DNA from: Burkholderiales bacterium
GTDB lineage: Bacteria > Pseudomonadota > Gammaproteobacteria > Burkholderiales > SG8-39
Assembly (NCBI GenBank): GCA_036526195.1
Contig: DATCYZ010000033.1
Location: 110,153 to 174,152 of the forward strand
Length of the DNA: 64,000 bases
Direction: 5' to 3'
Made by a program: the position numbers and the translations under genes. This document shows, piece after piece, positions 21,644-21,782 of this stretch. Each line of letters opens with the position of its first letter. The first letter of the stretch is position 1. The notes below the pieces were generated by a model, which saw nothing but the letters and a program-made list of their open reading frames with translations, ran no database searches and was not told the DNA's origin.

Positions 21644-21671
21644 GGAACTTTCTCCGCGCCGCCCGATCTTA
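21644..21671 (+). promoter_or_regulatory. Putative sigmaE (RpoE/ECF)-type promoter driving the candidate sRNA
   Basis: GGAACTT (21644-50), 16-nt spacer, TCTTA (21667-71), resembling the GGAACTT-N16-TCnnA consensus. Confidence 0.55.
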
Positions 21672-21676
21672 CCTTC

Positions 21677-21782
21677 AGACGATGCAAGTCGTCTCCCGCT
21701 TCTCCTCCCTGAGCGGGTGCCTTGCAGCAGCAAGGCGTTTTCGCCCCCGGACCAAATCTCCTTTGACCGGGGGTTTTTATTT
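21677..21782 (+). ncRNA. Candidate small regulatory RNA with anti-SD loops (resembles betaproteobacterial CUCCUCC-type sRNAs)
   Basis: Four consecutive hairpins: AGACGA/TCGTCT; CCCGCT/AGCGGG with loop TCTCCTCCCTG; GCCTTGC/GCAAGGC; CCCCCGG/CCGGGGG with loop containing TCTCCT, then TTTTTATTT; opposite strand to both flanking genes. Confidence 0.65.

Follow-up and report, generated by a model that had tools for sequence, protein, structure and literature searches.

In enterobacteria, the small RNAs MicA and RybB form the repressing arm of sigmaE. ErsA of Pseudomonas aeruginosa sits between polA and engB. It depends on Hfq and on sigma22, which is a sigmaE-like sigma factor, and it represses algC at the ribosome-binding site as well as the porin oprD (reviewed in PMC6321483); it is reported to pair through a U-rich, unstructured domain of 34 nt. 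Spot 42 occupies a similar place, between polA and yihA/engB (bioRxiv 10.64898/2026.07.10.737749). The sX13 RNA of the Xanthomonadaceae (Rfam RF02232) is also located at polA. Its C-rich loops are needed to repress G-rich target sites, and it acts without Hfq (PMC3771888).

Closest to the present locus is anti-hemB (RF02837), also called Burkholderia RNA 7. Weinberg et al. 2007 described it as the hemB/anti-hemB motif, a proposed non-coding RNA whose strand they left uncertain, and their supplement holds a consensus diagram of the anti-hemB hairpins (PMC1950547). The Burkholderia cenocepacia J2315 member, ncS04 or Bc7, is 105 nt long and lies in the hemB-engB gap, as documented by a dRNA-seq start, 3' RACE and a Northern blot (PMC4603805, PMC5688073). 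The 3' RACE end is the matching U-tract. These two papers also state that ncS04 co-purifies with Hfq, which they credit to another paper. Its level is described as flat over seven conditions (biofilm, stationary phase, starvation, glucose, salt as osmotic stress, low pH and a shortage of iron), and short SDS or H2O2 stress left the sRNAs of that study largely uninduced. That hemB is a target of Bc7 is a prediction only, according to the review PMC6321483. A 2026 preprint (bioRxiv 10.64898/2026.09.01.748597) presents anti-hemB as a haem regulator, and also mentions copies away from hemB.

The window analysed here is a stretch of 64,000 nucleotides from a Burkholderiales bacterium. An Rfam search of the whole window gives a single match above a gathering score. 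This is RF02837 at 21692-21782 on the plus strand, with 70.3 bits against a gathering score of 49.5, an E-value of 2.8e-16 and model positions 1-81/81 covered. The signature of anti-hemB, consisting of the CCCGC-UUYCCUCCCUGA-GCGGG hairpin, a second hairpin and a U-tract terminator, is present in full, and as in anti-hemB the RNA is upstream of hemB on the opposite strand. Judged by its sequence, the predicted RNA of about 106 nt at 21677-21782 (+) is a full-length, above-cut-off member of the RF02837/ncS04 family. The original prediction had called it unannotated, which was wrong; the strong Rfam match confirms the element and lowers its novelty. The family is already catalogued and functionally unstudied, and as a further member this copy is in itself ordinary. 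What the comparative result supplies is a testable regulator for an orphan RNA.

The neighbours are on the minus strand, opposite to the RNA, as had been claimed. Divergent from it is hemB, for porphobilinogen synthase (20568-21566; NCBIfam PRK09283, 487 bits, over cut-off), and convergent with it is the GTPase gene yihA/engB (21812-22417; TIGR03598, 208 bits, over cut-off). This hemB<-RNA->|<-engB context is the one found for ncS04, as are the hairpin-2 sequence and the predicted length of about 105 nt. At 21567-21585 hemB has no Shine-Dalgarno sequence, and its leader is C-rich immediately before the ATG. A 145-aa open reading frame at 21622-22059 (+, TTG start) overlaps engB in antisense; the codon model left it uncalled, and it is not taken to be a gene. 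The 23 expression runs listed all consist of assembled contigs, and none of these runs contains half of the sequence words looked for. Contigs from four of the runs cover 21455-21723, 21688-21940 and 21372-21640 exactly, at a depth of 2-4; because they cross the ends of the RNA, they show neither its strand nor its transcript.

Other known families fit less well. Models of MicA, RybB and Spot 42 give no Rfam match to this RNA at E-values up to 10. The resemblance to MicA and RybB is an analogy, in that a like role, the repressing arm of sigmaE, is proposed for the present RNA; that to Spot 42 is one of position next to polA and yihA/engB. The betaproteobacterial toxic sRNA (RF02278) was tried and rejected, with 24.5 bits against a cut-off of 50 and a 24-nt insertion needed. 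It shares CUCCUC anti-Shine-Dalgarno stretches and a similar terminator with the present RNA, which however has four hairpins instead of two and is a single copy adjoining engB. Some weak RF02837 matches away from engB (L056, L057, L065, L299) resemble such double-hairpin CUCCUCC RNAs of the toxic-sRNA type. These have the anti-Shine-Dalgarno word in common with anti-hemB, and targets could possibly be common too.

The predicted RNA consists of four adjacent hairpins followed by a U-tract, at the places originally proposed. The region folds at -49.4 kcal/mol (z = -4.53), and 0 of 200 shuffles did equally well. Hairpin 1, at 21677-21694, is conserved and falls outside the Rfam model; A21677 is its first base. 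Hairpin 2 (21695-21717) exposes the loop UCUCCUCCCUG, the likely seed, which is complementary to GGAGGAGA; TCTCCTCCC, at 21701-21709, lies in the loop of this hairpin. The loop of hairpin 3 (21719-21736) varies, and in the copies of other orders it is rich in C. The intrinsic terminator occupies 21744-21782, made up of a hairpin at 21744-21773 with the C/U-rich loop UCUCCUUU, which ncS04 does not have, and directly 3' of it the U-tract TTTTTATTT (21774-21782).

RF02837 is found over cut-off in 53 of 61 relatives and in 107 of 151 genomes of the order, with the genome studied here included in both. In an alignment of 55 copies the four helices hold 26 pairs, with 94.6% of cells paired and compensatory changes at 19 pairs. 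Of 500 shuffles, 0 came as high, and slid controls were 32-55% paired, with two reservations: relatedness among the sequences can inflate such a shuffle test, and the present copy served to derive the structure. The covariation that the original prediction had proposed looking for is thus there, and it extends to all four helices. Over the same 55 sequences, hairpin 1 has compensatory changes at 6/6 pairs (91.5% of cells paired), hairpin 2 at 3/6 (98.2%) and hairpin 3 at 5/7 (94%). Read on the plus strand, G-U cells in the helices outnumber A-C cells by 60:12, which fixes that strand. Along with the B. cenocepacia homolog, mapped at 105 nt on this strand, this bears out an independently terminated plus-strand sRNA of about 105 nt. 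Left out before counting were 11 weak below-cut-off matches that are not beside hemB/engB (L055-L065) and L136 from genome G097; L124, being of the same order, was removed from the other-order count, and L145 from the held-out count.

Two anti-Shine-Dalgarno loops had been proposed. Both are present in this copy, and loop 2 is the most conserved loop of the RNA, with 95% column identity versus 46-65% for the others (55 sequences). The second one fares worse. The terminator loop has a run of at least three Cs in 118 of 141 homologs, with consensus UCCCC and UCCCCUUU in most of them, but TCTCCT itself (21757-21762) is kept in only 1 of the 141, which is the present copy. Here the minimum free energy structure pairs its last base, in a weak inner helix of 4 bp.

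Upstream of the RNA, the plus strand reads GGAACTT at 21644-21650, a 16-nt spacer, and then TCTTA at 21667-21671. These are sigmaE-type -35 and -10 elements, in register in most homologs, and the -35 is that of E. coli sigmaE. The E. coli promoter is given as GGAACTT, 16 nt, TCAAA, with 26-27 nt from the -35 to a purine +1 (PMC1312014). With this spacing the predicted start falls on one of the first bases of hairpin 1, A21677 or G21678. For A21677, the 26-nt distance, the 5-nt discriminator and the purine agree with PMC1312014, the +1 itself being predicted from the fold. Boxes, spacer and a start near 21677 are all where the original prediction placed them. A sigma70 promoter scan of 21300-22200 found none.

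The pattern GAAC[CT][TAC]-N16-17-TC is in register at 44 of the 54 loci from relatives. It occurs in 39 of 10,582 control windows and on 1 of 54 opposite strands. It also appears in register at 47 of 60 further loci across the order (the best 60 of the matches listed), at 25 of 27 loci of other orders, and at 11 of 20 weaker held-out loci. The promoter was excluded from the RNA covariance models. Kin loci are not independent in these counts; yet the spacer sequence varies freely while both boxes are kept. A -10 matrix from 48 relatives has T at position 3 in 38/48 and A at position 5 in 43/48, its leading TC being imposed by the training pattern.

If the matrix of these 48 relatives, from which the own locus was excluded, is run over the genome, the sRNA site comes out on top at 26.8, with the next at 21.9. 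Further high-scoring upstream sites precede genes for a bepA-like M48 protein, mlaC, ftsH, an M16 peptidase, an rpoH-like sigma factor and an htpX-like M48 protein, where the names bepA, htpX and rpoH are readings of Pfam domains. The rpoE gene has two such sites upstream. It is located on contig C86 (309 bits, over cut-off) with RseA_N adjoining, and hfq is on contig C121. The claim of a sigmaE-type promoter holds up: conservation of the motif goes far beyond chance, and sites upstream of the likely sigmaE regulon of this genome agree with it. Members of this likely regulon, at loci L095-L103 on contigs C158, C80, C119, C165, C141, C140, C25 and C86 of the genome (G000), are bepA-like M48, mlaC, rpoH-like, ftsH, a TPR/Cds6_C protein, M16 peptidase, htpX-like M48, a 77-aa DUF3567 protein and rpoE.

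Some 4 kb from the RNA, the window also holds an ECF sigma factor (25924-27211, +; PRK12511-like, below cut-off), with an anti-sigma-like gene downstream. It is not the RpoE of the genome. Correlating promoter type with rpoE presence is uninformative, given that 57 of the 61 genomes have rpoE.

In the mostly open-access literature, as far as its accessible text goes, no statement was found of sigmaE control of anti-hemB, or of a link between anti-hemB and sX13. The consulted parts of PMC3521395, PMC5819304, PMC8575079, PMC7563307 and PMC13492112 have no bearing on a sigmaE-anti-hemB link. The sigmaE promoter of anti-hemB is well supported by the comparisons above, and seems to be unpublished. 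Such control likely goes back to the ancestor of the family and prevails in most of its members, yet it is not universal.

The only experimentally mapped start of the family is an exception. In B. cenocepacia NCTC13227, which we take to be a synonym of J2315, this start is position 1184 of locus L069. Unlike the in-register sigmaE-type promoter of the present copy, it has a sigma70-type TATGAT at -12..-7, and a GGAACC at -45..-40 that is out of sigmaE register. Among 26 loci of the B. cepacia complex, no conserved sigmaE -10 partnering this GGAACC was found. L040, L053, L188 and L208 also look sigma70-like, and G058 and G041, the genomes of L040 and L053, keep rpoE despite this. A bona fide sX13 copy, L145, looks sigma70-like too and has no strict sigmaE motif. 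Both L069 (1139-1184) and L145 (1659-1625, minus strand) combine a sigma70-like -10 near the start with a GAACC remnant that is out of sigmaE register. This hints that the promoter was switched twice, independently.

The reading we favour is that anti-hemB is a sigmaE-driven, Hfq-aided sRNA that represses ribosome-binding sites in trans; as a whole, we give this a probability of roughly 0.6. RpoE polymerase would transcribe the four-hairpin RNA of about 106 nt from A21677, and in this organism sigmaE dependence is highly probable. The RNA would then likely act in trans with Hfq, with the conserved UCUCCUCCC loop pairing to ribosome-binding sites of the GGAGGAG type and lowering translation. 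By analogy such occlusion is probable; the need for C-rich loops in sX13 repression (PMC3771888) counts in its favour. The messages repressed are possibly those of exported and periplasmic proteins.

If sigmaE does drive the RNA, an unstudied envelope-stress sRNA would be present in the majority of Burkholderiales and in roughly half of the remaining gammaproteobacterial families that were sampled. In that case both the name 'anti-hemB' and the preprint's haem-centred reading from 2026 would mislead. The sigma70-type start of B. cenocepacia may also be the reason for the flat expression of ncS04, accounting for the lack of regulation in the sole expression study, and it would make Burkholderia ill-suited as a model for how this RNA is regulated.

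As for targets, the loop complements ordinary strong ribosome-binding sites, with 128 genes carrying an upstream AGGAGA and 43 a GGAGGAG out of 3,136 called, where the calls come from a home-made caller whose choice of start favours Shine-Dalgarno-bearing ones. The original prediction had named dctP and ilvD as possible targets. They do not stand out: of about 3,090 genes ranked by duplex, dctP comes 213th and ilvD 276th. For predicted exported proteins, GGAGGAG is the first of 399 upstream 7-mers (24/43, versus 388/3,136 overall). In G004, exported proteins make up 9/18 at GGAGGAG and 3/10 at other GGAGG sites (30 loci of each pattern examined), and G295, which has no anti-hemB copy over cut-off, displays a similar trend of 6/18 versus 3/13. 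Ranked by duplex, the loop places 13 exported proteins in the top 60, where a generic 9-nt anti-Shine-Dalgarno sequence places 22. This generic ranking and the trend in G295 weaken the case for exported and periplasmic proteins as the target class, which is therefore rather doubtful.

No single conserved target stood out in the ranking. The best-pairing genes are those of solute-binding proteins (TctC, DctP, SBP_bac_3/5, Peripla_BP_6) and not porins. Solute-binding proteins take 7 of the top 30 places versus 58 of 3,092 genes, a count that is partly circular, since it was the top list that supplied the families. An unbiased signal-peptide heuristic gives a weaker enrichment. Only one porin gene was found; a contig edge removes its 5' end, which keeps it outside the ranking. 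The hemB leader pairs poorly with the loop, at -10.0 kcal/mol; being C-rich and lacking a Shine-Dalgarno sequence, it offers an anti-Shine-Dalgarno loop nothing to pair with.

Beyond the order, 151 genomes of the class were searched, one per family, with the own genome and G097 counted in the tallies and the G097 locus unused. A covariance model that includes hairpin 1 has matches in 62 of them, a broadened model in 78. At the 27 loci from other orders, engB is convergent in 20 and polA upstream in 12, and hemB adjoins none. The 20 weaker held-out loci are similar, with engB in the stretch in 17, polA in 11 and hemB adjoining in 0. Within the order hemB is divergent from the RNA at 52/54 and 44/60 loci. 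At 11 of those 60 (L156-L215) the RNA and engB share a strand, with the RNA behind the gene, and the 1.1-kb stretch contains no match to hemB. This local rearrangement is also found at L024, L053, L221 and L235. As the RNA occurs without hemB in the rearranged lineages, engB is the constant neighbour. Going by gene order, the RNA is tied to engB, and the name 'anti-hemB' is a positional accident of the betaproteobacteria.

This positional evidence bears on an idea already in print, in the form of the Bc7 target prediction (PMC6321483) and the preprint bioRxiv 10.64898/2026.09.01.748597. It holds that the RNA is a cis-antisense regulator of hemB and limits haem synthesis, either the RNA itself or the act of transcribing it affecting a message that reads through from engB into hemB, or else the divergent promoter of hemB. 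The frequent divergence of hemB within the order fits this. So does the terminator scan, which called none on the minus strand from engB to hemB, and so does C. metallidurans, for which the two genes are listed as a single operon and a hemB start is given 108 nt upstream. A term search of the published start-site table for C. metallidurans, a species that may lack the RNA, gave no opposite-strand start between the two genes. None of the 27 plus 20 copies from other orders adjoins hemB, however; they sit by polA and/or engB, and the rearranged loci within the order likewise do without it. Cis pairing would also not demand a loop conserved at 95%, and the C-rich leader pairs weakly with that loop. 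This makes a cis role improbable. More improbable still, and already largely refuted, is that there is no gene at all, only a terminator-like cluster of hairpins or else, in the orientation of a 'hemB motif', a cis element that belongs to the leader of hemB on the minus strand. The strand was ambiguous in Weinberg 2007, but the G-U excess, the promoter and the U-tract point to a plus-strand gene, and a plus-strand transcript has been mapped in B. cenocepacia.

Two further explanations keep the trans-acting RNA and change what it does. It could be the same anti-Shine-Dalgarno sRNA in effectively constitutive or metabolic use, with sigmaE at basal level only, or with an ECF factor of like specificity, tuning nutrient-transporter mRNAs and not serving as an envelope-stress effector. 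The flat expression and sigma70-type start of ncS04 would suit this, as would the prominence of solute-binding proteins over porins and the nine matches to the RpoE model in the genome, one of them over cut-off. It is nevertheless unlikely, since the motif is common to sites upstream of rpoE, rpoH, bepA, mlaC and ftsH, as an RpoE regulon predicts, and is retained over dozens of families; the truncation of the lone porin gene also takes porins out of the comparison. Alternatively, the RNA might be a sponge whose C-rich loops take up some protein, or a partner RNA rich in G, and block no ribosome-binding sites. A nearly invariant loop without a prominent conserved target could be read this way, tandem copies in several genomes suggest that dosage matters, and sX13 works without Hfq. 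Hfq co-purification and a U-tract terminator suit a pairing sRNA better, though, and repression by sX13 required matching G-rich motifs in the mRNA, so a sponge is quite improbable.

Like sX13, many distant anti-hemB homologs are downstream of polA (12/27 and 11/20). L145, an Rfam-grade sX13 at 103 bits, has four hairpins, C-rich loops and the same layout as anti-hemB. Several intermediate loci score on both the RF02837 and RF02232 models, for example L119 with 52.5 and 40.4 bits. Conversely, RF02232 (cut-off 50 bits) has no match to the present RNA at E-values up to 10, and none in its genome. L145 reaches just 14.7 bits on the first anti-hemB model, and the 28.5 bits that it has on the broadened model do not exceed the scores of double-hairpin paralogs. 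Other differences are the strict sigmaE motif, which L145 lacks, and Hfq, which sX13 does without and with which ncS04 is stated to co-purify. Homology of anti-hemB and sX13 is plausible but unproven. ErsA, compared by description, is what anti-hemB is proposed to be, a repressor acting at a ribosome-binding site with the help of Hfq, and it depends on a sigmaE-like factor. Its pairing domain is U-rich and unstructured, where the present RNA has a C-rich hairpin loop.

A wider history can be sketched tentatively, at somewhat worse than even odds. In it, an ancient sRNA driven by sigmaE would have stayed beside engB since the early Gammaproteobacteria (GTDB class), with anti-hemB as its betaproteobacterial branch. 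To lineages that have no MicA/RybB, anti-hemB would supply the RNA arm that their envelope-stress response is missing, silencing GGAGGAG-led mRNAs of periplasmic proteins, and it would be homologous to sX13 and perhaps to ErsA. Burkholderia and the Xanthomonadaceae would then have been independently rewired to housekeeping promoters, each with a displaced GAACC remnant.

Some loci hold two copies, in tandem or nearby. These include L137 (1501-1614 and 1796-1913) and L134 (1501-1624 and 1717-1824), the latter with no strict promoter at the copy nearer engB. Genomes G224, G273, G246, G089, G143 and G144 also have double copies. Finally, L131 carries a c-di-GMP-I riboswitch (2039-2123, minus strand, 77.9 bits), roughly 450 nt upstream from its copy of the RNA.
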